From contig JBHIDR010000021.1 of the NCBI GenBank assembly GCA_046760225.1, positions 1 to 13,638 on the forward strand: 13,638 nt of DNA, read 5' to 3'. The position numbers and the translations under genes were made by a program. This DNA comes from Candidatus Aenigmatarchaeota archaeon. Lineage in GTDB: Archaea; Aenigmatarchaeota; Aenigmatarchaeia; Aenigmatarchaeales; JACQIB01. Under the pieces are notes generated by a model. The model had not been told where the DNA came from and did not search any database. It saw nothing but the letters and a program-made list of their open reading frames with translations. The first letter of the stretch is position 1; each line of letters begins with the position of its first letter. Below, one piece after another: positions 1 through 9,804 of the stretch.

Positions 1-867
1 TACTCCAACGCAACTGCAGAAAGTAACGGTGGAGAAGGAGTATATGTGTTCTACGAGGACACAGACAACAAGGTGCAGTATGACTCAGTGACAGATGGAA
101 CTGCAAACGACAACTTTGCTGACGTAACATACCAGGACGTGACACTTGACCTTGAGTGGGCAAACGTCACAGCAGCTGGAGGAGTCGAGCTCTTCGTGAA
201 CGAAGACGGAATGACCCTGACAGGCACAACAGCAGGAAACTACTCAATGGACATAAAGTTCAGTGGCAATGCAATTGACGGACTAGGAACAAACAAGAAC
301 AAGGAAGATGGAGAAGACCTATCTGTTTATGGCACAGAAGTAGGAACCAGGGAAGAGAGTGTCCTGACGCACATTGGTGCTGTCCTAGTGACACCAAAGT
401 CGAACACTGCTTCAGACAAGGTCGTAATCGATGTGCCGTCAGTGCAGGTCAAGGGAATCCTGACTGTTGGTCCAGTTGGTGAAGTAGCAGCAGGAGAAGA
501 GGTAACATACACAGAAGCAATACCAATAACATCGAGCGTTGCTGCACTTGACACCGAGGTCGACAAGACAGCATCTGACCTGATACTGGTCGGAGGTCCT
601 TGTGCAAACGACTTGGTCGAAGAACTTGCTCAGGCAGGCAAGTTCCCATACACATGCGACACATGGCCAACTGACAAGTTCGCAGTTGTCTCTGTGATAG
701 CAGACGCATTCACAACAGGTAAGACCGCGGTTGTGATTGCAGGAACAACAAGAACCGAGACAAACATGGGAACAGATGCTGTACAGCAGGGTCTGCTTGA
801 TGGAAGGACTGAGACACAGGTCAAGATAACAAGTCTGACCACAGCAGGAGTAACAGAATTGGTGTAA
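1..867 (+). CDS. S-layer protein, C-terminal part (5'-truncated by the window), with an S_layer_C-like terminal domain
   Basis: Frame 1 is open from base 1 (YSNATAESNGG...) to TAA 865-867, so GTG46 is internal. The protein is D/E/T/G/V-rich with N-glycosylation sequons NAT, NVT and NYS. Its C-terminal PITSSVAALDTEV...DLILVGGPCANDLV...AVVIAGTTRTET matches the archaeal S-layer C-terminal signature (LILVGGPxAN ... VxVAGxxxxxT). Strong codon bias (ACA, GCA, GAC, AAC, GGA) suggests high expression. Confidence 0.85.
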   Translation, partial: YSNATAESNGGEGVYVFYEDTDNKVQYDSVTDGTANDNFADVTYQDVTLDLEWANVTAAGGVELFVNEDGMTLTGTTAGNYSMDIKFSGNAIDGLGTNKNKEDGEDLSVYGTEVGTREESVLTHIGAVLVTPKSNTASDKVVIDVPSVQVKGILTVGPVGEVAAGEEVTYTEAIPITSSVAALDTEVDKTASDLILVGGPCANDLVEELAQAGKFPYTCDTWPTDKFAVVSVIADAFTTGKTAVVIAGTTRTETNMGTDAVQQGLLDGRTETQVKITSLTTAGVTELV

Positions 868-875
868 ATTCCTAT

Positions 876-922
876 GAGAGGGTGATGGCATGAGCCGTTC
901 CCCTCTTTTTTTCTCTTTTTTT
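876..922 (+). terminator. Stem-loop plus double T7 tract after the S-layer gene
   Basis: GAGAGGGTGATGGC (876-889) pairs with GCCGTTCCCCTCTT (894-907) at 13 of 14 positions, including three G-U pairs, around an ATGA loop. T7 runs lie at 906-912 and 916-922 (CTCTTTTTTT twice in tandem, 903-922). Confidence 0.7.
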
Positions 923-1465
923 AATTCTTCTCGTTTCATGGTCCTAGTGCTGATTCTGGCCGTACTCGTTTCAGGGTGCGTGACGCAGAACCCCTACAAG
1001 GCAAAGATAGGAGGAAAGGAGGTGGACTTCAGGGCAGACCTCAATGAGGCAAGGAAAGTGCCTGTTTATCCTTCTGAGTTCGCCTTGAAAGAGCTCCTCC
1101 TCCATGAAGGCATAGAAAGGGTGAGGATTGCTTTCATTCCGAATGAGCAGGAAAATCCCTTTTATGCTGTTGATGGCTTTGAAATAAGCTTCAAGCTCAC
1201 CACAATCTACATTGTGTATTTTGGTTACCAGATTCCCATTGAATCCCTTGAGGTCAACACCACCTCAGAGGCATTTGCAAATGCCACATATTCAGAACCC
1301 GTTATACTCATCTTGGGGCCTGCAACAGGCGCCAACCAGACTGCCGTGACAGTTGCAAATAATACGGTTGTTGTGGAAGGCCATGATTTGAGCGAGATAG
1401 ACAGGAAGTATACTGACCTTGACCTTGCAGTTGACAAGATGCTGCTCGTGCTCATTGGTGAATAA
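890..1465 (+). CDS. Putative lipoprotein of unknown function
   Basis: Hydrophobic stretch MVLVLILAVL, then lipobox-like VSG|C. Sequons NTT, NAT, NQT and NNT. SD-like GGTGA at 881-885 precedes ATG890; alternative start ATG938. Confidence 0.75.
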   Translation: MSRSPLFFSFFNSSRFMVLVLILAVLVSGCVTQNPYKAKIGGKEVDFRADLNEARKVPVYPSEFALKELLLHEGIERVRIAFIPNEQENPFYAVDGFEISFKLTTIYIVYFGYQIPIESLEVNTTSEAFANATYSEPVILILGPATGANQTAVTVANNTVVVEGHDLSEIDRKYTDLDLAVDKMLLVLIGE

Positions 1466-1466
1466 T

Positions 1467-1483
1467 TATTTAACCTATAAATA
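1467..1483. promoter_or_regulatory. TATTTA-N5-TAAATA palindromic TATA-like element (internal promoter or operator)
   Basis: TATTTAACCTATAAATA lies in the AT-rich gap before ATG1505 and is 16/17 identical to 11971-11987. Confidence 0.5.
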
Positions 1484-1504
1484 CTGATATTGAAAGGGGA
1501 TATT

Positions 1505-2161
1505 ATGAGAATAACAATAACAGATGTACTCATAGTCTTGCTGATAGTGGTATTTGTTTATTTTTCCCTGACAGCACCAAGGTATTTCCAGGTCAAGGGC
1601 AATGAGCTTTTCGGTGCAGTAATGACCTACAAGACACTTGTTGGCAGGGGATATGGGGCAGATGCTGAAATTTCAGGCATTGGTTCTGGATTTGATTTGC
1701 AGAGCATAGAGGGAATTGTAATTGACGCAACATCAACCAGGATGTACATATGGGACAGCAACAGGGTCCATGTTGTTTTCCAGAAGGATGAAAAGAACCC
1801 ACTTGCACATGGCTCAGAGCCACAATCACCCTATATAACCTCAAGCATAATAACACTCAGGCCAACTCAGTCCTATTCACTGGAAGAAACAGGCTGTGAA
1901 GGTGCTGAATTTGTGAGCCAGACATTGTATATTGAGCTTGACAAGGAGACTGACAGCATAGTCTGTGATTATATTTCCAAGAAGTTATGGGACAGGTTTG
2001 GTGGGGAAATAGGCTGCAGGGCCGATGGCAACCATGCCAGGATTAATCTGGCCTTTGCCCATGATTTCAGCTTTGGTGAAATCGAAAACACGTTTTCAGA
2101 TTTCAGATACAAGGTAGAAAGCTATCAAACCCTGTCCACTAAGTGTTTGGTGCTCAAATGA
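1505..2161 (+). CDS. Membrane-anchored hypothetical protein (N-terminal TM, probably extracytoplasmic domain)
   Basis: ATG1505 follows AAGGGGA and is preferred over TTG1490. It starts MRITITDVLIVLLIVVFVYF (one TM) and has four Cys in the C-terminal half. Its stop overlaps the next start (ATGA 2158-2161). Confidence 0.7.
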   Translation: MRITITDVLIVLLIVVFVYFSLTAPRYFQVKGNELFGAVMTYKTLVGRGYGADAEISGIGSGFDLQSIEGIVIDATSTRMYIWDSNRVHVVFQKDEKNPLAHGSEPQSPYITSSIITLRPTQSYSLEETGCEGAEFVSQTLYIELDKETDSIVCDYISKKLWDRFGGEIGCRADGNHARINLAFAHDFSFGEIENTFSDFRYKVESYQTLSTKCLVLK

Positions 2162-3378
2162 TTGGGATTCTTGCAAAGAAGGCTGCCAACCAGATAGAGA
2201 GGCTGGGAAAACTTACGAACTTGATAATAAAGAATTCAACTCAAGAAAAAAGAGCAACCAGAACAAGAAAAAAAGGAATCCGGCTGAATTCTTACCTCTT
2301 GGAAGGTATTGGCAGTTTCCTGGAGCCCTCTGTCTTCAGTGCAGGAAGGATGATGCTCTTAATCTTCCTCCTCTACGTCTTTCTGGGCGTCTTTTCTACT
2401 GTCCCCATGTTATATCCGCTTGAGCTTGCGATGGGCATGATTCTGATTTTCATTGCCATTGCAATGATACAGCTTGGCGGAAAAATGGGCAAGCTACCGA
2501 AGAGGCTTCCTTACCATGTTCCCAATTATGATTTCTGGGGAGGCATATTCCTTCTCGGGACACTCGGTTTGATTTTGAACTATCTTCAGGTCGGGACACC
2601 GCTTTTCAATCCTGACATAAGGCCCTACTATCATAACATGCTCTGGTCTGTTTCAATGATTTTCTATGTGATGGGCATGACAATGACAGCCATAAACCAT
2701 AGGAACAGAAACGTCTTTGTACTGCTTTCTCTGCTTTCCATCATACTTTCGGTCCTTTCAGGTTTCAGGACAGACTTTATAATTTTCCTTTTCCCACTAC
2801 TATTCTTTTTTTACTTCTTCAGGAAGTCAGGAAGGAGCGCATTTCTTTTGGCCCTACTTGTTGTCTCGGTCATTGCGATAATAGGTATAAAATATCTGCT
2901 GATAATTTTCGGGGGCAGTGCCCTTGGTGTTGAGCAGATATCATTTGCACGGGCCGGGTTCAGCCTTTATGTGCTATCGATATTGATTAAGAACGTAGGA
3001 ATTTTGGGCCTTACACATGGTGCTGTATGGCTGAATTCCTTTGTCCTGCAGTTCTTTGGTTTTCCTATTGCTCCAATAGGTGCAATAGTCTCCGAGATGG
3101 TAATAAACATGGCAAAGTCGCATGCCTCAACACTTGTTGGTCCCCTCTACCTTGAGTTTGGCGTTCTTGGCGTAATCATCGGTTCCCTTGTGCTTGGCTT
3201 CCTTTGCGAGCTGCCCCACAGGATATACAAGACGACCAGGAATTATTTTTTCCTTGGTCTTTACTCTATAAATCTTTCAATTCTTCTGGTCTGGGTTGAG
3301 ACCGGTATTGTGCAATACTATCTGGCATTTTTGTTCTTTGTAATAGGGTTTTGGTGTTTGCAATGGCTAAGAAGATGA
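2158..3378 (+). CDS. Oligosaccharide repeat unit polymerase (Wzy-like, PF01901-type), paralog 1
   Basis: Polytopic membrane protein with roughly 10-11 hydrophobic segments. Motifs LSGFRT and STLVGPLYLEFGVLG are typical of the archaeal O-antigen-polymerase-like family. Start placed at the ATGA overlap rather than GTG2143. Confidence 0.75.
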   Translation: MIGILAKKAANQIERLGKLTNLIIKNSTQEKRATRTRKKGIRLNSYLLEGIGSFLEPSVFSAGRMMLLIFLLYVFLGVFSTVPMLYPLELAMGMILIFIAIAMIQLGGKMGKLPKRLPYHVPNYDFWGGIFLLGTLGLILNYLQVGTPLFNPDIRPYYHNMLWSVSMIFYVMGMTMTAINHRNRNVFVLLSLLSIILSVLSGFRTDFIIFLFPLLFFFYFFRKSGRSAFLLALLVVSVIAIIGIKYLLIIFGGSALGVEQISFARAGFSLYVLSILIKNVGILGLTHGAVWLNSFVLQFFGFPIAPIGAIVSEMVINMAKSHASTLVGPLYLEFGVLGVIIGSLVLGFLCELPHRIYKTTRNYFFLGLYSINLSILLVWVETGIVQYYLAFLFFVIGFWCLQWLRR

Positions 3379-4451
3379 GCATTTGTTTGCTTTCGCGTTA
3401 TCCTCCATTGAAAGGGGGCGTATCAGTACATGTACAGGCCTTGGTAAAGGGCCTGAAAGAAAAGGGTCATGATATCACCCTTATAACCTATGGGAAGCTG
3501 AAAAGGAAGGAGAGAGGAACAAGGATAATCGAAGTCCCGATGATAAATTTGTTCTTCCTCCGCGGTCTTGTTTACCTTATCGGTGCAATCCTTGCGCTGC
3601 GTAAAGCAAGGGAGAAAATAGATATAATACATGCACATCCCCTGCATCCTGCAGGCACAGCTGCTGTGATGTTCAAGACATTCAGCAAGGTGCCTGTTGT
3701 TGTAACCTCTCATGGCTCGGACCTTGCAAAGTGGTCAAAGGTGCCATTAGGAAAGGCTTTCTTTTCCAGAATCGCAAATTCATCAGACAAGGTGATTTGT
3801 GTTAGTGATGCTCTTGCAAGGCGCGCAAAGGATATTGGCATAAAAAGAAAAAAGATAATGGTGGTCCCCAACGGCATAGACGTTCCCCATAAAATTAGGA
3901 AGGCAAGCAAGATTCGGCTCAGGCAGCAGCTGAGACTTCCGGAAAAAAAGAAAACAGTTCTCTTTGTTGGAATGATGGAAGATATAAAGAACCCGCAGGA
4001 ACTTCTTGAAGTTGCAAAGCACCTGAAGGATTATCTGTTTGTGTTTGTAGGTGGAGGAAGTCTAGAGAGGCAAATGAGGCAGTACGCAATAACAAACAAG
4101 CTGGGCAATGTGAGATTCACAGGCATGAAAGACCATGAAACCGCGCTGAAATACATCCGCGCTGCTGACATACTTGCAGTACCTTCAAAATTTGAGGGCT
4201 TTGGTATTGTTGCGCTGGAAGGCATGATGCTGGGAACCGCTGTTGTTGCAAAGCCAGCAGGAGCGCTTAAAAACCTCCTTGCCAGGGAGTCGTTGACAAA
4301 AAATTTGAAATCGAGAATCGTACAAGTGATGGAAAGCAAGAGACTGAGGAACAAAATAATAAGGAAAAACAGCAAAATTGCTGAAAAGTTTAATGAAAAT
4401 ACAATGGTAGATGAGATTGAAAGAATATATCAAACAGTTAGTAAGACCTGA
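3363..4451 (+). CDS. Glycosyltransferase family 4 (GT-B, retaining)
   Basis: Motifs YPPLKGGVSVHV, DIIHAH, VVTSHGSD, VVPNGID, LFVG and EGFGIVALE (E-x7-E). ATG3363 follows GGTG; ATG3375 (ATGA overlap) is an alternative. Confidence 0.92.
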   Translation: MAKKMSICLLSRYPPLKGGVSVHVQALVKGLKEKGHDITLITYGKLKRKERGTRIIEVPMINLFFLRGLVYLIGAILALRKAREKIDIIHAHPLHPAGTAAVMFKTFSKVPVVVTSHGSDLAKWSKVPLGKAFFSRIANSSDKVICVSDALARRAKDIGIKRKKIMVVPNGIDVPHKIRKASKIRLRQQLRLPEKKKTVLFVGMMEDIKNPQELLEVAKHLKDYLFVFVGGGSLERQMRQYAITNKLGNVRFTGMKDHETALKYIRAADILAVPSKFEGFGIVALEGMMLGTAVVAKPAGALKNLLARESLTKNLKSRIVQVMESKRLRNKIIRKNSKIAEKFNENTMVDEIERIYQTVSKT

Positions 4452-5616
4452 GGTATTTGTTTTACTTTCCTTGCTTTTTCTCCTTGCAGGAACTTACGTA
4501 ATTTATAATCCATATTTTCTATCAGTGAACCCGAACCTTTCCTTTTCTACTCTCTCCTTGTTTGTGTGGCTTTTCGCTCTCGGCTGCTTCCTCTTAGGTA
4601 TTAAGTACAAGGAATTGTTGTTCAAACTGAAACATCTTCCAGCAGCAATTATATTTTTATTAGCTTCACTTTCAATAAGCTTTTTGTACAGCCTACATCC
4701 CATAGTTGCACTACTCTTTGCTATTTCTGTCTTTGCAGTATCTTACTGTGTTTTGGAGTTCAGGTGGAATTTTCTTTACCTCTTTGCTTTAGGTACATTG
4801 GCTGTCCTGATCAATTTCTTGATTTTCGGTATACCCCTTCTGGATATACAGATTCATGTAGCCTCCTCAATGGCATGGAAGGGTTTATCTGATTTTGTAA
4901 ATCCTTTGTTCATTTTCGGTATCTATGCGATGCTTTATTCTGCAGTACGGCTTTATGGAGAAGGGAGGGTGAAAACTCTTTATGCCAGGAGCATGTTCCT
5001 GGTCCTTATTGTTCTTGCAGCCTTCTCATCGTTCAGGGTTTATGTGGCAATAGCATTTCTGGTCATGCTATTTATGGAAATGAAACAAAAGAAAGCAAAG
5101 GAAAATAGAAACACCTATGTCTTTCTTTCAGCCATGCTTGTTGCGGTCTTGGTTTTCTTTCTCTTGGTGGGGCACACTCTGGAGGTAGTCAAGAACAACG
5201 AGATAGGCGGTCCTATAGAGGTTGCACAATACAGGTTCGGTTTCTCTCTGCATGTTTTTGATGATATAGTAAAAAAGGCGTTTCCGTTCGGCCATGCCTT
5301 TGGGAGCACCTATATGTCTGAAAGCGGGATTGGCATCATGGTTTGTCAGGTGCTTTATGGGTGCAGTTCAAAGCTCACATCAACTGCTTTTGGACAGGCG
5401 ATGCTGGATTTCGGCTTGCTGGGAATCTTTCTCATGGCCTTTTTCCTTGCAGCTGTTCTGGGAAAGCTTTATGAGAGGGACTACCCTCTTTATACAATAG
5501 GAATTGCACATGCCATTGTTGCAATCGAAATAGGAATAAACATATTTTTCCTTTTGTTGTTCGCAATACTTTATTTGAGGCTGGTGGGATGGAATCCATT
5601 AAAAAGGCAGGACTGA
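4411..5616 (+). CDS. Oligosaccharide repeat unit polymerase (Wzy-like, PF01901-type), paralog 2; could be a ligase
   Basis: Polytopic membrane protein with GIPL, SSFRVY, YRFGFSL and LTSTAFGQAMLDFGLLG. These parallel GTPL, SGFRTD, ARAGFSL and ASTLVGPLYLEFGVLG in paralog 1. Confidence 0.7.
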   Translation: MRLKEYIKQLVRPEVFVLLSLLFLLAGTYVIYNPYFLSVNPNLSFSTLSLFVWLFALGCFLLGIKYKELLFKLKHLPAAIIFLLASLSISFLYSLHPIVALLFAISVFAVSYCVLEFRWNFLYLFALGTLAVLINFLIFGIPLLDIQIHVASSMAWKGLSDFVNPLFIFGIYAMLYSAVRLYGEGRVKTLYARSMFLVLIVLAAFSSFRVYVAIAFLVMLFMEMKQKKAKENRNTYVFLSAMLVAVLVFFLLVGHTLEVVKNNEIGGPIEVAQYRFGFSLHVFDDIVKKAFPFGHAFGSTYMSESGIGIMVCQVLYGCSSKLTSTAFGQAMLDFGLLGIFLMAFFLAAVLGKLYERDYPLYTIGIAHAIVAIEIGINIFFLLLFAILYLRLVGWNPLKRQD

Positions 5617-6830
5617 TTTTGCTTGCCGGACTTATATTCTCCCGTTTAGGCGGGACCCTGTTCAAGTTCATTGCAATCTACCATCTGACGCCGCTCGAGT
5701 ATGGAAAGCTTGCGCTCTTCCTCATAATGTTCAACTGGCTTCTCTTGATTGCTACCTTCAATACCACATTAGGTCTGGCAAAGTTCGTTGCAGAAAAGAG
5801 GAGCAAAAAGGAACTGCTTTATGGTTCAGCCCTCCTTGGCTCGACAATAATATCGCTTTTCATTTCAGGACTGTTGATTCTTTTTTCCAACCAGATTTCA
5901 TTGTTTATAGGCCTGGGCAGCATCCCCATAATATTGTTTTTGGCTGCTGTACTGCCGTTTGCAGTGGTATACAACATAACAATATTCTATTTCAGGGGCC
6001 TCTACAGAATGAAGGCCTCAACACTCTCTGATGTCGCGCTTTCAGCAGCAAAGGTAATTCTTTTAATATTCCTTTTTTATGTCGGTTACAACTATCCGCC
6101 TTACTTTGCTTTCCTTATAGCACACATGCTTATTGACCTTGTTTTAATCTTCAAGGGAAAGCTTCCGAAAAGAATTGCTTCAATCAACATGATAAAGATC
6201 AAAAAAGGGCTCATAAACTACAGAATGCTGCTCATTTATTCCTTTCCTATATTCATTGCAGAAATAACAAGATTCTTAGGGCTTGGAATTGACAGGTTCT
6301 TCCTTGCAAAATTTTTCACAACATCTGCAACAGGGATATATGACTTAGGTATATCGTTATGCATAGGATATCTTGTCATAGCCAATTCCTATGCGAATGC
6401 ACTGCTTCCTGTTGCAAGCAGGAACCATAGAAACGTTTCACGGCTCAAAACAAGTCTTTTCAAGTCAACAGGATACGTTGTAGTGCTTTATGTCCTTTAC
6501 ACAATGGCCATTCTTTTCTTCATCGAGCCCCTGGTCAACCTGATAAACCCACTCTATATTGAGGTCACGACATTTGTATTGCCGCTGATGGTTGTTTACG
6601 CCTTAATTGGCTTTCTTTCGCTGCTGACCCACTTCGCAAGTGCCATTGCCTTGCAGAAATACGCCGCATATGCATCAGCGGTGTTCCTTATTCTTGCCTT
6701 TACGTTAAACTTTTATTTGGTGCCTGAGCTAAAGTATTTAGGAGCAGTTGAAGCTCTGCTGGCCTCATCCCTGGCTTCCTTAGTATTGCTCATGTTGATG
6801 ATTTGGAGGGGGTTAAAATCAAGAAGATAA
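5589..6830 (+). CDS. Wzx-like oligosaccharide flippase (MOP/polysaccharide biosynthesis family)
   Basis: About 12 TM segments. Motifs LTPLEYG, LAKFVAE, FRGLYRMK, YSFP, IDRFFLAKF..TGIY, NALLP and LNFYLVP. Confidence 0.85.
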   Translation: MESIKKAGLILLAGLIFSRLGGTLFKFIAIYHLTPLEYGKLALFLIMFNWLLLIATFNTTLGLAKFVAEKRSKKELLYGSALLGSTIISLFISGLLILFSNQISLFIGLGSIPIILFLAAVLPFAVVYNITIFYFRGLYRMKASTLSDVALSAAKVILLIFLFYVGYNYPPYFAFLIAHMLIDLVLIFKGKLPKRIASINMIKIKKGLINYRMLLIYSFPIFIAEITRFLGLGIDRFFLAKFFTTSATGIYDLGISLCIGYLVIANSYANALLPVASRNHRNVSRLKTSLFKSTGYVVVLYVLYTMAILFFIEPLVNLINPLYIEVTTFVLPLMVVYALIGFLSLLTHFASAIALQKYAAYASAVFLILAFTLNFYLVPELKYLGAVEALLASSLASLVLLMLMIWRGLKSRR

Positions 6831-7717
6831 TAATTTTCATGGCACTAGTGTTTTTATGTTCACCTGCATATGCAGCTGAATCCTACGATCTTATCGTGGT
6901 AAGGGCTGACATACCAACAGAATATGTTGTTGCATCGGTTTATGCAAACTCAAAGAACATACCTGTCGTGCTTGTAAGTCCGGATGAGATATCAGAAAGC
7001 ATTTATGAAGAACTTCAGGGGTATGTTGCATCAGGCTATACAAGCCTTCTGCTTGTTGGTGGAAACGAGGCAATAGCGTTTGAGGTGGAAAAAACATTGA
7101 ACAACATGGGATTTAATGTCCGCAGGCTGTGGGACTGGAACAGGGAAGGCACAGCAGCCAGGGTTGCGGTTGAGCTCTGGGAAGAAAGCAAATATGTTGT
7201 TCTTGTCAACGGTGCCAATTACGACAATCTTCTGGCTGCGCAGAGGTTTGCAATGAAAAACAACATACCTGTCCTCTATACCATTGATGGGACTGTCCCT
7301 GAAGAGACAAGGACTGCAATGGAAAAGATCGGTGCTAGAAAGGCCTTTCTTTTTGAAACAGTGAAAGAAGATATGGGCATCGAGACAGAACTAATCAGTC
7401 CAGCTTCTTCTGACATAGAAAAGAAAGTGACCGAATCAGAATTTAGTTGGGTACTTTTTGCAATATTTGCCTTCGCGCTTGTTGCTGTCATCTTTATATC
7501 AAAAGTCAAGCTGCCCTCAAGCATACTTACAAAGGAAGAGAGAAAGATAATCTATGCTGTTAAAAGGAGAGCAGTGAAACAGAACGAGCTTCCTGGCATA
7601 ACAGGTTTTTCCAAGCCCAAGGTCTCAAGGCTTGTCCAGAACCTTGAGAAAAGAGGTCTTGTTTCTAGAAAGAAAATAAAGAAGACCTATCTTGTGGAGA
7701 GCAAGACCAAGATATAA
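6803..7717 (+). CDS. Cell-wall-binding repeat 2 (CWB2) domain / transmembrane helix / winged-HTH fusion protein
   Basis: Signal peptide KKIIIFMALVFLCSPAYA|AE. Two CWB2-like repeats (ASVYANSKNIPVVLV..LLVGGNEAI..RLWDWNREGTA; AAQRFAMKNNIPVLYT). TM segment FSWVLFAIFAFALVAVIFI. C-terminal LTKEERKII..QNEL..TGFSKPKVSRLVQNLEKRGLV wHTH. Start uncertain (TTG6803 or ATC6818). Confidence 0.78.
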   Translation: MEGVKIKKIIIFMALVFLCSPAYAAESYDLIVVRADIPTEYVVASVYANSKNIPVVLVSPDEISESIYEELQGYVASGYTSLLLVGGNEAIAFEVEKTLNNMGFNVRRLWDWNREGTAARVAVELWEESKYVVLVNGANYDNLLAAQRFAMKNNIPVLYTIDGTVPEETRTAMEKIGARKAFLFETVKEDMGIETELISPASSDIEKKVTESEFSWVLFAIFAFALVAVIFISKVKLPSSILTKEERKIIYAVKRRAVKQNELPGITGFSKPKVSRLVQNLEKRGLVSRKKIKKTYLVESKTKI

Positions 7718-7739
7718 CGTTTCAGATGCGTGAAACGTT
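7716..7739. repeat. Perfect 9-bp inverted repeat AACGTTTCA-N6-TGAAACGTT (operator or terminator hairpin)
   Basis: Directly visible at the end of the HTH gene, 21 bp upstream of a TATA-like box. Confidence 0.6.
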
Positions 7740-7760
7740 CCACAACGATTTCGACTGTTA

Positions 7761-7770
7761 TATTTATAGG
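7761..7770 (+). promoter_or_regulatory. TATA box of the GlcNAc-1-P transferase / DUF354 unit
   Basis: TATTTATAGG begins 32 nt before ATG7793. The same 9-mer, TATTTATAG, begins 31 nt before the pth2 ATG on the minus strand. Confidence 0.55.
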
Positions 7771-7792
7771 TCCTGTTTTCTGTAAAATTATT

Positions 7793-8722
7793 ATGTTTGA
7801 ATATTTGAAAGCAGTGCAAATCATCTTCTCCTTAGCCATTGCTCTGTTCTTCCTGACTTACCTTATAATACCAAAAGTCGCCAAGGTACTGAAAGCAAGG
7901 ATAAAGTATGGCATTGATGTCCACAAGCCACAAAGACCGAAAGTTGCAGAATGCGGGGGTATTGTTATCCTGTTTTCAATTTCAATTTTCCTCTTGTTCG
8001 CCTACATGATGCTGGGTGACATAAGGATAGTGTACGTCATGCTCGTAGCAATGATGTTCTCACTTTATGGCCTGGTTGATGACATTGTAAGGCTGGGAAA
8101 GTATCAAAAGCTCATCGTATCCTTTGCAATAGCAGCTGTTGGAACGTTTCTGTACGGGGCAACAGGCCTGTTTTTCATATTGAGCATACTTTTCCTGATA
8201 GCAGCATCAAACATATTCAATATTTTTGCAGGGCTCAACGGACTTGAAATAGGTTTTTCAACAATAATAGCATTCTTCTTCGCAGCCGCATCATTCCTGC
8301 TAAGCCAGGCAGCCCCTTTCTTTATGTCCGTCGGGATGTTTTTAGTCCTTCTTGCGTTCCTGCTGCATAATAAATACCCTGCCAGAATATTTCCTGGTGA
8401 TGTTGGAACGCTTCTGATAGGGGGCTTTTTTGCTTCCATGACACTTTACTATGGAATGTACATAGTCCTTGTTCCTCTGCTGGGCATCCATATCCTTGAC
8501 TGCCTTTTCAAGGGATGCTCTTCAGGATACTTCAGCAGCCACGAGAAAAAACCGACCAAGATTCTTGGGAACGGCATGCTTAAGCCAAGGGATGATTTCC
8601 TTTCTGTGGTAAGGATGCTGTTGAAGATAAAACCCATGACAGAAAAGATGGTAGTAAAAATATTATGGTCTTTTGAGATATTGATAGGCATAGCGACGGT
8701 TTCAATCCTGGTGATAATATGA
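7793..8722 (+). CDS. UDP-GlcNAc:polyprenyl(dolichyl)-phosphate GlcNAc-1-phosphate transferase (GPT/AglH-like; MraY/WecA superfamily)
   Basis: Motifs GIDVHKP..PKVAECGG, GLVDD, NIFNIFAGLNGLE and NKYPARIFPGDVGT; polytopic membrane protein. ATG7793 is preferred over GTG7730, which lies upstream of the TATA box and inside the inverted repeat. Confidence 0.88.
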   Translation: MFEYLKAVQIIFSLAIALFFLTYLIIPKVAKVLKARIKYGIDVHKPQRPKVAECGGIVILFSISIFLLFAYMMLGDIRIVYVMLVAMMFSLYGLVDDIVRLGKYQKLIVSFAIAAVGTFLYGATGLFFILSILFLIAASNIFNIFAGLNGLEIGFSTIIAFFFAAASFLLSQAAPFFMSVGMFLVLLAFLLHNKYPARIFPGDVGTLLIGGFFASMTLYYGMYIVLVPLLGIHILDCLFKGCSSGYFSSHEKKPTKILGNGMLKPRDDFLSVVRMLLKIKPMTEKMVVKILWSFEILIGIATVSILVII

Positions 8723-9804
8723 AGATATGGATAGATGTTACAGCTCCTCCGCATGTGACCTTTTTCAGGGCAATGATGAAGAACATGAACAATATAGTTG
8801 TTACAGCAAGGGACTTCGGTCAGGTAAAGGAATCGCTTGACAGATACGGTGTCAAATATGCTCTTATTGGTAAGCATGGTGGAAGAGGCAGGATGGGAAA
8901 GTTGGTAAAGAGCTCTGAAAGGATAATGGAGCTTGCGAAGTTTGTTGAGAAGGAAAAGCCAGACATAGGCTTTTTCAAGCACGGCATTGAAGGAGCAAGA
9001 GTATGTTATGGTCTTGGCGTGCCTTGTGTAAACCTCATAGATCATGATAGCGCAACAATACAGAACAGGCTGATGATGCCTATTTCAGATGTTATTGTGG
9101 TGCCTTCCTTTGTTTTTCCAGGATACTTGAAGCAGTTCGGGCCAAGGAAGATAAGGCAGTTCTTCGGCGTTTCTGACTATACTCATTTCATAGACTTCAG
9201 GCCTTCAAAGGACGTTCTGAAGCAGCTCAATCTCTCTGGGAACAAGCCCATCATAGTCACGAGGGCAGAGCCCTATCTTTCCTCACATGTGTTCCGCAAG
9301 AGCAAGCTTTACAATGTTCTCGCAGAGATTTTGGACAACATTGATGCACAGATAGTTTTCGTGCCAAGGAACAAGGTTGACAGGCAGCAGTTCTCAAAAC
9401 TGGGTGTGACCATTCCAGAAAAGGAAATAGATGTCTTGAGCCTTTACTGGCATACGAACCTCATGCTTGGTGCAGGATGCTGCATGAACAGGGAGGCCGC
9501 TCTTGCCGGCTGCCCCACAATATCAATGTATCCCGACGAGCTTCCTGCAATGGACAAGTTCATGATAGAGCGGGGCATGATGAAGTTCACAACAGATTCA
9601 AGAAAGGCGCTGAAATGGGGGCTTGACATAATATTGAACGGATGGGAGGATACGAACGGAAAATTAATAAACAAGATGGAAAATCCCTACCAAGTGATGT
9701 TCGAGGAAGCTGAGAAGCTCACTGGCAAGAAGGTCACTGTCCCACCATCACTTTATTCAGCACCACTGTTGCATAGGCCCCTGAAGGCAGAGCAAAGGAT
9801 ATAA
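8719..9804 (+). CDS. DUF354 family protein (predicted GT-B glycosyltransferase)
   Basis: Motifs MKIWIDVTAPPHVTFF, VTARD, IGKHGG, ARVCYGLGVP and MNREAALAGCPTISMYP. ATGA overlap with the upstream gene. Confidence 0.88.
   Translation: MKIWIDVTAPPHVTFFRAMMKNMNNIVVTARDFGQVKESLDRYGVKYALIGKHGGRGRMGKLVKSSERIMELAKFVEKEKPDIGFFKHGIEGARVCYGLGVPCVNLIDHDSATIQNRLMMPISDVIVVPSFVFPGYLKQFGPRKIRQFFGVSDYTHFIDFRPSKDVLKQLNLSGNKPIIVTRAEPYLSSHVFRKSKLYNVLAEILDNIDAQIVFVPRNKVDRQQFSKLGVTIPEKEIDVLSLYWHTNLMLGAGCCMNREAALAGCPTISMYPDELPAMDKFMIERGMMKFTTDSRKALKWGLDIILNGWEDTNGKLINKMENPYQVMFEEAEKLTGKKVTVPPSLYSAPLLHRPLKAEQRI

Follow-up and report, generated by a model that had tools for sequence, protein, structure and literature searches.

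A conserved gene cassette adjoining an archaeal S-layer gene and predicted to direct a second lipid-linked surface glycan

Here, we describe a block of ten genes at positions 1-9804 of contig C21 of an Aenigmatarchaeota-like DPANN genome, in which the 3' part of an S-layer gene is followed by putative glycan assembly genes and by a gene for a membrane protein that carries cell wall binding repeats (CWB2). The whole contig, 13,638 nt in length, is referred to as the window. Its source genome (G000) comprises 851 kb in 83 contigs and is 83% complete; G001 denotes a sister genome. Families were assigned with Pfam and NCBIfam over the 15 open reading frames (ORFs) of the window. Every one of the ten ORFs lies on the + strand, and with the starts of the longest ORFs six of the nine junctions overlap by 4-41 nt and the other three are spaced by 12-24 nt. 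Ten co-oriented genes with named families had been listed here by a first-pass annotation, in good agreement with the ORF positions and the Pfam and NCBIfam matches; the families of that list hold, but its order does not, the actual order being PF01901, GT4, PF01901. The features are the following (TM, transmembrane; wHTH, winged helix-turn-helix; GT, glycosyltransferase).

1..867, + strand: 3' part of the S-layer gene, 288 codons (S_layer_C, E 1e-13; TIGR01564, E 5e-12)
890..1465, + strand: secreted lipobox-like protein of 191 aa without family (signal peptide and cysteine motif VSGC)
1490..2161, + strand: one-TM protein with an outside domain, divergent arCOG03414-like (one N-terminal hydrophobic segment; no Pfam family)
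2143..3378, + strand: PF01901 paralogue 1, polytopic, arCOG03206 type, Wzy-like (PF01901, E 5e-31; seven merged hydrophobic stretches)
3351..4451, + strand: cytoplasmic glycosyltransferase GT4 (GT-B) (Glyco_transf_4, E 1e-34; Glycos_transf_1, E 1e-24)
4411..5616, + strand: PF01901 paralogue 2, divergent, arCOG03207-like (PF01901, E 3e-19)
5589..6830, + strand: Wzx-like flippase of the MOP superfamily (Polysacc_synt_3, E 2e-13; Polysacc_synt, E 3e-12; ten hydrophobic stretches)
6803..7717, + strand: CWB2-TM-wHTH protein (CW_binding_2, PF04122, E 6e-9; DUF7343 wHTH, E 8e-7)
7730..8722, + strand: polyprenyl-phosphate sugar-1-phosphate transferase, second copy (PF00953, E 4e-23)
8719..9804, + strand: DUF354, soluble enzyme of GT-B fold (PF04007, E 2e-70)

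With an alignment of the CWB2-TM-wHTH protein as pattern query, 14 related loci were retrieved from Aenigmatarchaeota, Undinarchaeota and unplaced archaeal metagenome-assembled genomes. The CWB2 gene, the PF00953 transferase gene and DUF354 are adjacent in 13 of them and also in the locus L011; the contig of the fourteenth ends at the CWB2 gene. Ten loci (nine of the 14 plus L011) preserve the longer order GT4, PF01901, Wzx, CWB2-TM-wHTH, PF00953, DUF354, at 27-73% identity. An S-layer gene is located directly downstream and convergent in eight of the 14 loci, and precedes the cassette in the same orientation in the window and in G001, which upholds the link to the S-layer drawn in the first-pass annotation. 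The Undinarchaeota loci keep the triad of CWB2, PF00953 and DUF354 genes at 30-38% identity together with a GT4. Next in these loci are genes for sugar nucleotides, for a GT2 with DUF2304, for an MprF-type flippase domain and for a PMT-type GT-C; neither PF01901 nor Wzx was found within 10 kb of them.

The co-occurrence of these families was evaluated in a sample of 151 genomes of the phylum. Eleven of them encode a full-length CWB2-TM-wHTH protein; precisely these 11 also have PF01901, which the other 140 lack. DUF354 was observed in 12 genomes, ten of which are shared with the CWB2-TM-wHTH protein (10 of 11) and two of which belong to the remaining 140. The correlated distribution anticipated by the first-pass annotation is thus found, and its patchiness is as expected for a cassette gained and lost as a unit. 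Judged by synteny and co-occurrence, we regard the block as a conserved cassette rather than a chance neighbourhood; its gene order persists at identities of 30-46%. A published description of the whole cassette was not found in the literature searched. A rhomboid protease was tried as a further member and rejected, since only L028 has it as a neighbour and the 14 further loci tested do not.

The PF00953 transferase of the cassette displays the motifs DD, NxxNxxAGxNGLE and GD, which we take to be those of PF00953-type transferases. Among solved structures, MraY is closest to it (E 5e-9), with DPAGT1 at E 2e-4, and the other PF00953 copy of G000, on contig C62, is most similar to human DPAGT1 (Alg7; E 4e-14). 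Two classes are apparent in the phylum. Of the first, with approximately 340 aa and scores of approximately 78-132 bits, most genomes have no more than one copy; members of the second, with approximately 315-330 aa and 67-85 bits, are confined to ten cassette genomes out of the 151 and always adjoin DUF354. The cassette enzyme is thus not the Alg7/AglH-type enzyme of the organism, the Alg7-like copy being the one on C62. Of the initiating GlcNAc-1-P transferase proposed in the first-pass annotation, the family stands (E 4e-23), while the GlcNAc specificity is an assumption, since the nearest solved relatives are MraY and not Alg7. Likewise, the reported absence of aglB holds within the window but not genome-wide: two STT3/AglB genes, both over the cut-off, are located on contigs C63 and C14, and one of them adjoins a GT2. 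As the cassette carries a second, divergent MraY-like transferase, and an Alg7-like copy as well as AglB are encoded elsewhere, it looks like a route apart from housekeeping N-glycosylation.

For DUF354, the constant partner of this transferase, Mudgal et al. (2015, PMC4520260) predicted, in their treatment of the family, a glycosyltransferase with few catalytic residues kept. Our structural model of the 8719-9804 protein (pLDDT 93, pTM 0.90, the last ~25 residues at low confidence) is nearest to UDP-GlcNAc 2-epimerases (WecB/MnaA/NeuC; PDB 4NES, 5ZLR) among solved folds, with Z scores from 28.0 to 23.5. The best match is the M. jannaschii enzyme 4NES (Z 28.0, root-mean-square deviation 3.2 over 315 residues), then CapG (Z 25.9) and NeuC (Z 24.8), and the first glycosyltransferases are PglA (Z 22.1) and MurG (Z 19.0). 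Foldseek concurs in the likeness to epimerases (E 1e-12). Sequence identity to the epimerases, however, amounts to only 10-17%, no Epimerase_2 (PF02350) match was obtained by Pfam, and a profile of 44 DUF354 proteins compared with the PDB returned weak GT1/KdtA C-terminal nucleotide-sugar motifs only. Because no canonical UDP-GlcNAc 2-epimerase was found in the assembled part of G000 (83% complete), DUF354 could take this role in the organism. It would either add the second sugar or supply an epimerised donor, and its strict pairing with PF00953 points to an action at the beginning of the chain. In bacteria, pairs of the wecA-wecB type combine an initiating transferase with an epimerase.

Both the 2143-3378 and the 4411-5616 protein match PF01901, 'putative O-antigen polymerase'. 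According to the section of Makarova, Galperin and Koonin (2015, PMC5898192) that deals with this family, genes for pfam01901 (arCOG03206) usually stand together with those of a paralogue, arCOG03207, and of the one-TM protein arCOG03414, often near PMT-type transferases. HHpred linked pfam01901 to Wzy (98%) and arCOG03414 to part of the TrmB sugar-binding domain, and the trio was predicted to act in 'lipopolysaccharide biosynthesis and/or glycosylation' (section 3.7); Supplementary Table 3 lists arCOG03414 immediately 5' of arCOG03206 in Methanocaldococcus and Korarchaeum. In the window, we observe the same arrangement, a one-TM TrmB-like protein directly 5' of a PF01901 protein and a second polytopic PF01901 paralogue, with the GT4 in between. 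The 1490-2161 protein itself has no direct Pfam match. When it was combined with ORFs at equivalent positions into a profile, 52 representatives were retrieved, two of which carry an NCBI name of the TrmB sugar-binding type, and a partial PF11495 TrmB sugar-binding domain follows right after the TM helix in 12 of the 15 representatives tested. By gene order and predicted domains, the 1490-2161, 2143-3378 and 4411-5616 proteins match the arCOG03414/arCOG03206/arCOG03207 trio.

Orthologues of paralogue 2 (27-51% identity) stand directly upstream of Wzx in L011, L018, L020 and L022-L028. Paralogue 1 and the one-TM gene are replaced by a PMT_2 GT-C of ~800 aa in five loci (L020, L022, L024, L025, L028), and both may do the same job; three of the five PMT_2 proteins show weak (alpha/alpha)6-barrel-like matches at the C-terminus. 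A PMT_2 search of G000 matched the two AglB genes only. Searches by sequence found no solved structure for PF01901. The GT4 is held at its position in ten related loci, and both Polysacc_synt_3 and Polysacc_synt exceed their cut-offs on the flippase; the Wzx/Wzy-type parts named by the first-pass annotation (initiating transferase, GTs, Wzx, PF01901) are all present by Pfam. Still, it is the family names only that suggest a polymerisation of the cassette glycan. The repeat-unit polymerase model TIGR04370 scores 33.9 bits on 2143-3378 (E 1.7e-8) and 20.1 bits on the second paralogue against a cut-off of 40, and a search restricted to the 15 ORFs of the window (Pfam, NCBIfam) revealed no gene of a known family for a chain-length regulator (Wzz, or polysaccharide copolymerase, PCP), for export or for a ligase.

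The lipoprotein-like ORF 890-1465 has no Pfam or NCBIfam match, even at E values up to 10, and its Atlas relatives are unnamed archaeal clusters only, with weak SIS/GH20b-like folds at a template modelling score below 0.5. Homologues with 35-37% identity are located directly beside DUF354 in L011 and L012, and the ORF thus belongs to the cassette in other lineages too.

The S-layer gene at the 5' end of the block is truncated, since the contig ends within it. The initial 597 codons were located on contig C4 of this assembly, at its end, where residues 1-169 of the fragment are 80% identical to the end of the 597-aa open frame C4:2-1792(-). The two contig ends (window 1-510; C4:2-505, L038) thus overlap by ~170 codons, and as they do so at only 80% identity, this suggests that the assembly broke because the middle part of the S-layer protein varies between strains or exists as two alleles. 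G001 carries an intact S-layer gene of 702 aa in the same place (L045:3168-5276 (-)), within the order TM-wHTH protein, S-layer gene, lipoprotein-like ORF, one-TM ORF, PF01901, GT4. The S-layer proteins of this group possess a signal peptide and no C-terminal membrane anchor, and the fragment at 1-867 contains no hydrophobic segment. N-X-S/T sequons number three in the 288-aa fragment and six to seven in full-length relatives.

The PF05124 profile (177 positions) matches the S-layer protein of G001 with its positions 6-171 spread over residues 34-673, approximately 450 residues being inserted between the N- and C-terminal parts. With a match of this extent, the N- and C-terminal ends seem to come together in a single alpha/beta domain. 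No PF04122 (CWB2) match was obtained by Pfam for the S-layer protein. A homology between S_layer_C and CWB2 was considered and is unsupported: hhalign returned a probability of 0.1% with whole-protein profiles and a non-significant 1-2% (E 0.03-0.06) at the level of domains. The motifs of the terminal domain nevertheless stand in CWB2 order, and hhalign places LILVGGPCAN opposite LLLVGGNEAI in register.

The same kind of domain was observed outside this context. The ORF L037:2-844 (-) on contig C42 of G000 fuses an ArsR-type wHTH to an S_layer_C-like alpha/beta domain, has neither signal peptide nor TM helix, and has counterparts of the same design in Atlas clusters of Aenigmatarchaeota and Nitrososphaerota. 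The S_layer_C-like end domain is thus also used inside the cell, perhaps in a ligand-binding role.

Behind the S-layer gene, the 22-nt spacer contains no T-run and includes GAGGGTGAT, a ribosome-binding-like site. Two runs of seven T are present at 906-912 and 916-922 of the window, 39-55 nt past the S-layer stop and within the start of the next ORF. Oligo-T tracts can terminate archaeal RNA polymerase, and the two runs might reduce read-through into the glycan genes.

The CWB2-TM-wHTH protein (6803-7717) consists of a signal peptide, two CWB2 repeats on the outside, one TM helix and a MarR-like winged helix (DUF7343). Its ectodomain had been assigned to CWB2 in the first-pass annotation, and this is confirmed by family and fold. 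PF04122 scores 36.8 bits against a cut-off of 24.9, with two partial matches, and the AlphaFold model (pLDDT 82, ~90 in the ectodomain) exhibits two beta/alpha units (residues ~30-101 and 105-183), the TM helix and the winged helix. In a Foldseek search of the PDB, the top 11 matches are all CWB2 proteins of C. difficile, including Cwp6, SlpA-HMW and Cwp8 (E 5e-8 to 2e-6 over 171-210 columns), and MarR-family regulators rank next. The two units are related to each other (hhalign probability 76%), and each carries a motif of the P[ILV][ILV][LV] type, PVVL in unit 1 and PVLY in unit 2. Across 19 homologues, 66 columns are invariant and the ectodomain is acidic throughout, with a net charge of -5 to -13. 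The wHTH should be cytoplasmic, since basic residues come after the TM helix in the relatives. A further CWB2 protein was not found in G000 (83% complete), and no published description of the CWB2-TM-wHTH architecture was found in the literature searched.

Secreted CWB2 proteins of 466-782 aa were observed in other Aenigmatarchaeota: L040:4415-5815 (-) (P0137), L041:4174-6144 (+) (P0138) and L042:2471-4819 (-). Their repeats are N-terminal; Pfam resolves one or two, and a third unit is visible by eye. In P0137 and P0138, the repeats are followed by a long coiled coil with no visible TM helix, and both resemble stalk or fibril proteins.

A second TM-wHTH protein, P0021, is encoded on contig C4 of G000 (L038:2052-2984 (-)) directly upstream of the S-layer gene. 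It comprises a signal peptide, a beta-rich ectodomain without family, a TM helix and a DUF7343 wHTH, and its counterpart in G001 is 59% identical. Because G001 has a TM-wHTH protein ahead of its intact S-layer gene, P0021 is most likely the first gene of the G000 block, which then starts with this additional gene. Proteins of ~300 aa that match the TM-wHTH part alone (profile positions ~208-304) occur in most genomes of the phylum sample, often in two copies, so that the TM-wHTH proteins look like a large class of membrane-tethered winged-helix proteins with changeable ectodomains. No paper was found under DUF7343/PF24034. As TM-wHTH proteins with other ectodomains are widespread in the phylum and one of them flanks the S-layer gene, we read the CWB2-TM-wHTH protein as a member of this class of membrane-tethered regulators, with CWB2 as its sensing domain.

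Implementing all these observations, we consider, with moderate confidence, that the block is a conserved and patchily distributed DPANN cassette for a second lipid-linked surface glycan, which is separate from the Alg7-like/AglB route and genetically tied to the S-layer gene. The PF00953 transferase of the cassette would start the chain on polyprenyl (dolichyl) phosphate. DUF354 and GT4 would act subsequently, DUF354 by adding the second sugar or by providing an epimerised donor, and the Wzx-like protein would flip the lipid-linked unit. On the outside, the ancient archaeal trio of the one-TM TrmB-like and the two PF01901 proteins would polymerise the glycan, transfer it to its final acceptor, or both; this acceptor would most likely be the S-layer glycoprotein or the cell surface below. 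The CWB2-TM-wHTH protein would work as a membrane-tethered one-component regulator, which senses the glycan or the underside of the S-layer outside and binds DNA inside.

Several points weigh against this proposal. Every enzymatic step is a prediction from genes. The cassette genomes are related, fall into about four families and are in part the same records as the loci (L027 is G129:C7; L018 is G001:C6), and the counts given above therefore overstate the independence of the evidence. No chain-length regulator was seen among the ORFs of the window by Pfam, and the PF01901 scores stay under the cut-off of the repeat-unit polymerase model. In archaea, the trio is also encoded in housekeeping contexts with neither Wzx nor PF00953 nearby, and its job thus need not be polymerisation; similarly, the triad can work without PF01901 and Wzx, since the Undinarchaeota loci have neither within 10 kb. 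The fold of DUF354 is nearest to epimerases, not transferases, and G000 is only 83% complete. Finally, two glycan routes in Haloferax can reportedly both feed AglB, so that a second transferase does not exclude N-glycosylation.

One alternative is an ordinary agl-type cluster, which makes a lipid-linked oligosaccharide that AglB transfers to asparagines of the S-layer protein, with the PF01901 proteins as accessory or outside transferases and the CWB2-TM-wHTH protein as a local regulator. In archaea, agl genes are usually found near S-layer or aglB genes. The two AglB genes of G000 and the sequons of the S-layer protein fit this explanation, and in their discussion of the trio Makarova et al. 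(PMC5898192) kept a 'glycosylation pathway' open. It is less easily reconciled with the occurrence of the cassette in just 11 of 151 genomes, compared with the widespread housekeeping Alg7-like transferase, or with the cassette transferase being a divergent extra copy nearer to MraY. Moreover, an AglB gene of G000 has its own GT2 neighbour and is unlinked to the cassette. We regard an agl-type cluster as rather unlikely.

The first-pass annotation had itself favoured a polymerised glycan, similar to a secondary cell wall polymer, that holds the S-layer non-covalently via CWB2 as PS-II does in C. difficile. The grouping of Wzx, Wzy-like and initiating transferase genes, the genuine CWB2 fold and the lack of a membrane anchor in the S-layer protein are consistent with this idea. 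The secreted CWB2-coiled-coil proteins of other Aenigmatarchaeota make a shared surface ligand of CWB2 plausible, and the scaffold idea would also agree with a protein of Methanocaldococcus FS406-22 described below. The CWB2 proteins of C. difficile (SlpA-HMW, Cwp6, Cwp8; PMC4973711, PMC8881574) share with ours the ectodomain fold, the P[ILV][ILV][LV]-like motifs and the location beside an S-layer gene and a glycan locus. However, Willing et al. (2015, PMC4973711) reported that the removal of any one of the three tandem CWB2 repeats abolishes anchoring in C. difficile, and the protein of the window has two repeats, not three. These reside on a membrane-anchored TM-wHTH protein instead of the S-layer protein, in which neither Pfam nor hhalign (probability 2% or less) detected CWB2. 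The acidic ectodomain of all 19 homologues does not favour an anionic polymer as ligand, archaea have no peptidoglycan or PS-II, and the CWB2 protein is the sole one found in G000 (83% complete). With CWB2 on a membrane-anchored two-repeat protein with a cytoplasmic wHTH, and none detectable on the S-layer protein, the analogy to C. difficile is not supported. The scaffold is thus only partly supported: a Wzx-type cassette tied to the S-layer gene remains of it, the C. difficile-like features (three repeats, CWB2 on the S-layer protein) do not, and as a whole we judge it decidedly unlikely.

A direct protein anchor, in which the two-repeat ectodomain docks the S-layer protein, for example with its terminal domain as the third unit, and the glycan genes are linked only through S-layer glycosylation, could draw on the single domain implied by the PF05124 match, on the CWB2-like motif order with its aligned stretch and on the missing TM anchor, but it is most improbable in view of the non-significant profile comparisons, of an S_layer_C-like domain on an ArsR-type HTH protein without TM helix, which is therefore not solely an extracellular docking unit, and of a triad that occurs in Undinarchaeota loci with no detectable adjacent S-layer gene.

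Supplementary Table 3 of Makarova et al. (PMC5898192) contains, for Methanocaldococcus FS406-22, a gene with a 'putative cell wall-binding domain' (arCOG00388) that adjoins a PMT-type gene (arCOG00563) and the PF01901 paralogue arCOG03207. On the entries of this table, Methanocaldococcus is a second, distant lineage with CWB2-type and PF01901-type neighbours.

Among known systems, bacterial Wzx/Wzy clusters for O-antigen, capsule and enterobacterial common antigen share with the window an operon-like block of initiating transferase, cytoplasmic GTs, MOP flippase and Wzy-like proteins. They differ in that no Wzz/PCP, export or ligase family was found in the window, that the Wzy-like proteins here belong to an archaeal family of putative function, and that the carrier is presumably of the dolichol type. 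Bacterial slg clusters (Geobacillus, Paenibacillus, Tannerella) combine an initiating transferase, GTs, a transporter and a Wzy_C-type protein beside the S-layer gene; glycan assembly genes adjoin the S-layer gene in both cases, with the archaeal families PF01901 and DUF354 in ours. A further relative is the arCOG03414/03206/03207 module of Euryarchaeota and Korarchaeum, with its one-TM TrmB-like gene 5' of PF01901 and a second 10-TM paralogue (PMC5898192). The PMT-type GT-C, a frequent neighbour of this module in the account cited, is mirrored by the PMT_2 protein that replaces paralogue 1 in five related loci. In contrast to the module, the window has a GT4 inserted between the paralogues, and the trio is part of a larger block with Wzx, PF00953, DUF354, CWB2-TM-wHTH and S-layer genes. 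The reference genomes in Supplementary Table 3 of the same work show the trio in housekeeping surroundings, with no DPANN genome among the entries considered here. The trio is thus already in print, and its context with a flippase and an initiating transferase is added here.

Downstream of position 9804, the window continues with unrelated housekeeping genes for TruD, DUF63, Pth2, a Zn-dehydrogenase and a CDP-alcohol phosphatidyltransferase (Pfam). The 3' ends of DUF354 (+) and TruD (-), each taken as its longest ORF, overlap by 71 nt (9734-9804). Elsewhere in G000, LAGLIDADG homing-endonuclease domains are present in three ORFs on contigs C4 and C16 (L038:4332-5390, L039:1986-2924, L039:10615-11784).

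From a biological point of view, the cassette touches the question of how anchorless S-layer proteins stay on the cell. A bold extension of our proposal, which we hold to be very doubtful, is that the CWB2 ectodomain with its two repeats docks the anchorless S-layer protein or its cassette glycan, completes a three-unit CWB2-like assembly together with the terminal alpha/beta domain of that protein, and in this way tethers the S-layer to the membrane and reports its state to the chromosome via the wHTH, with the glycan made by the Wzx route and the PF01901 trio as the glue. If true, this would be an archaeal counterpart of the anchoring by secondary cell wall polymers in bacteria, and the PF01901 trio would gain its first function. 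Because DUF354 strictly accompanies the transferase, the search for the function of the DUF354 family is narrowed. For the widespread PF01901 trio, which has been without a function since 2015, the cassette gives a concrete hypothesis, namely a second surface glycan that is flipped and linked to the S-layer, and it reveals a membrane protein in which a Clostridium-type wall-binding fold and a DNA-binding domain are combined.

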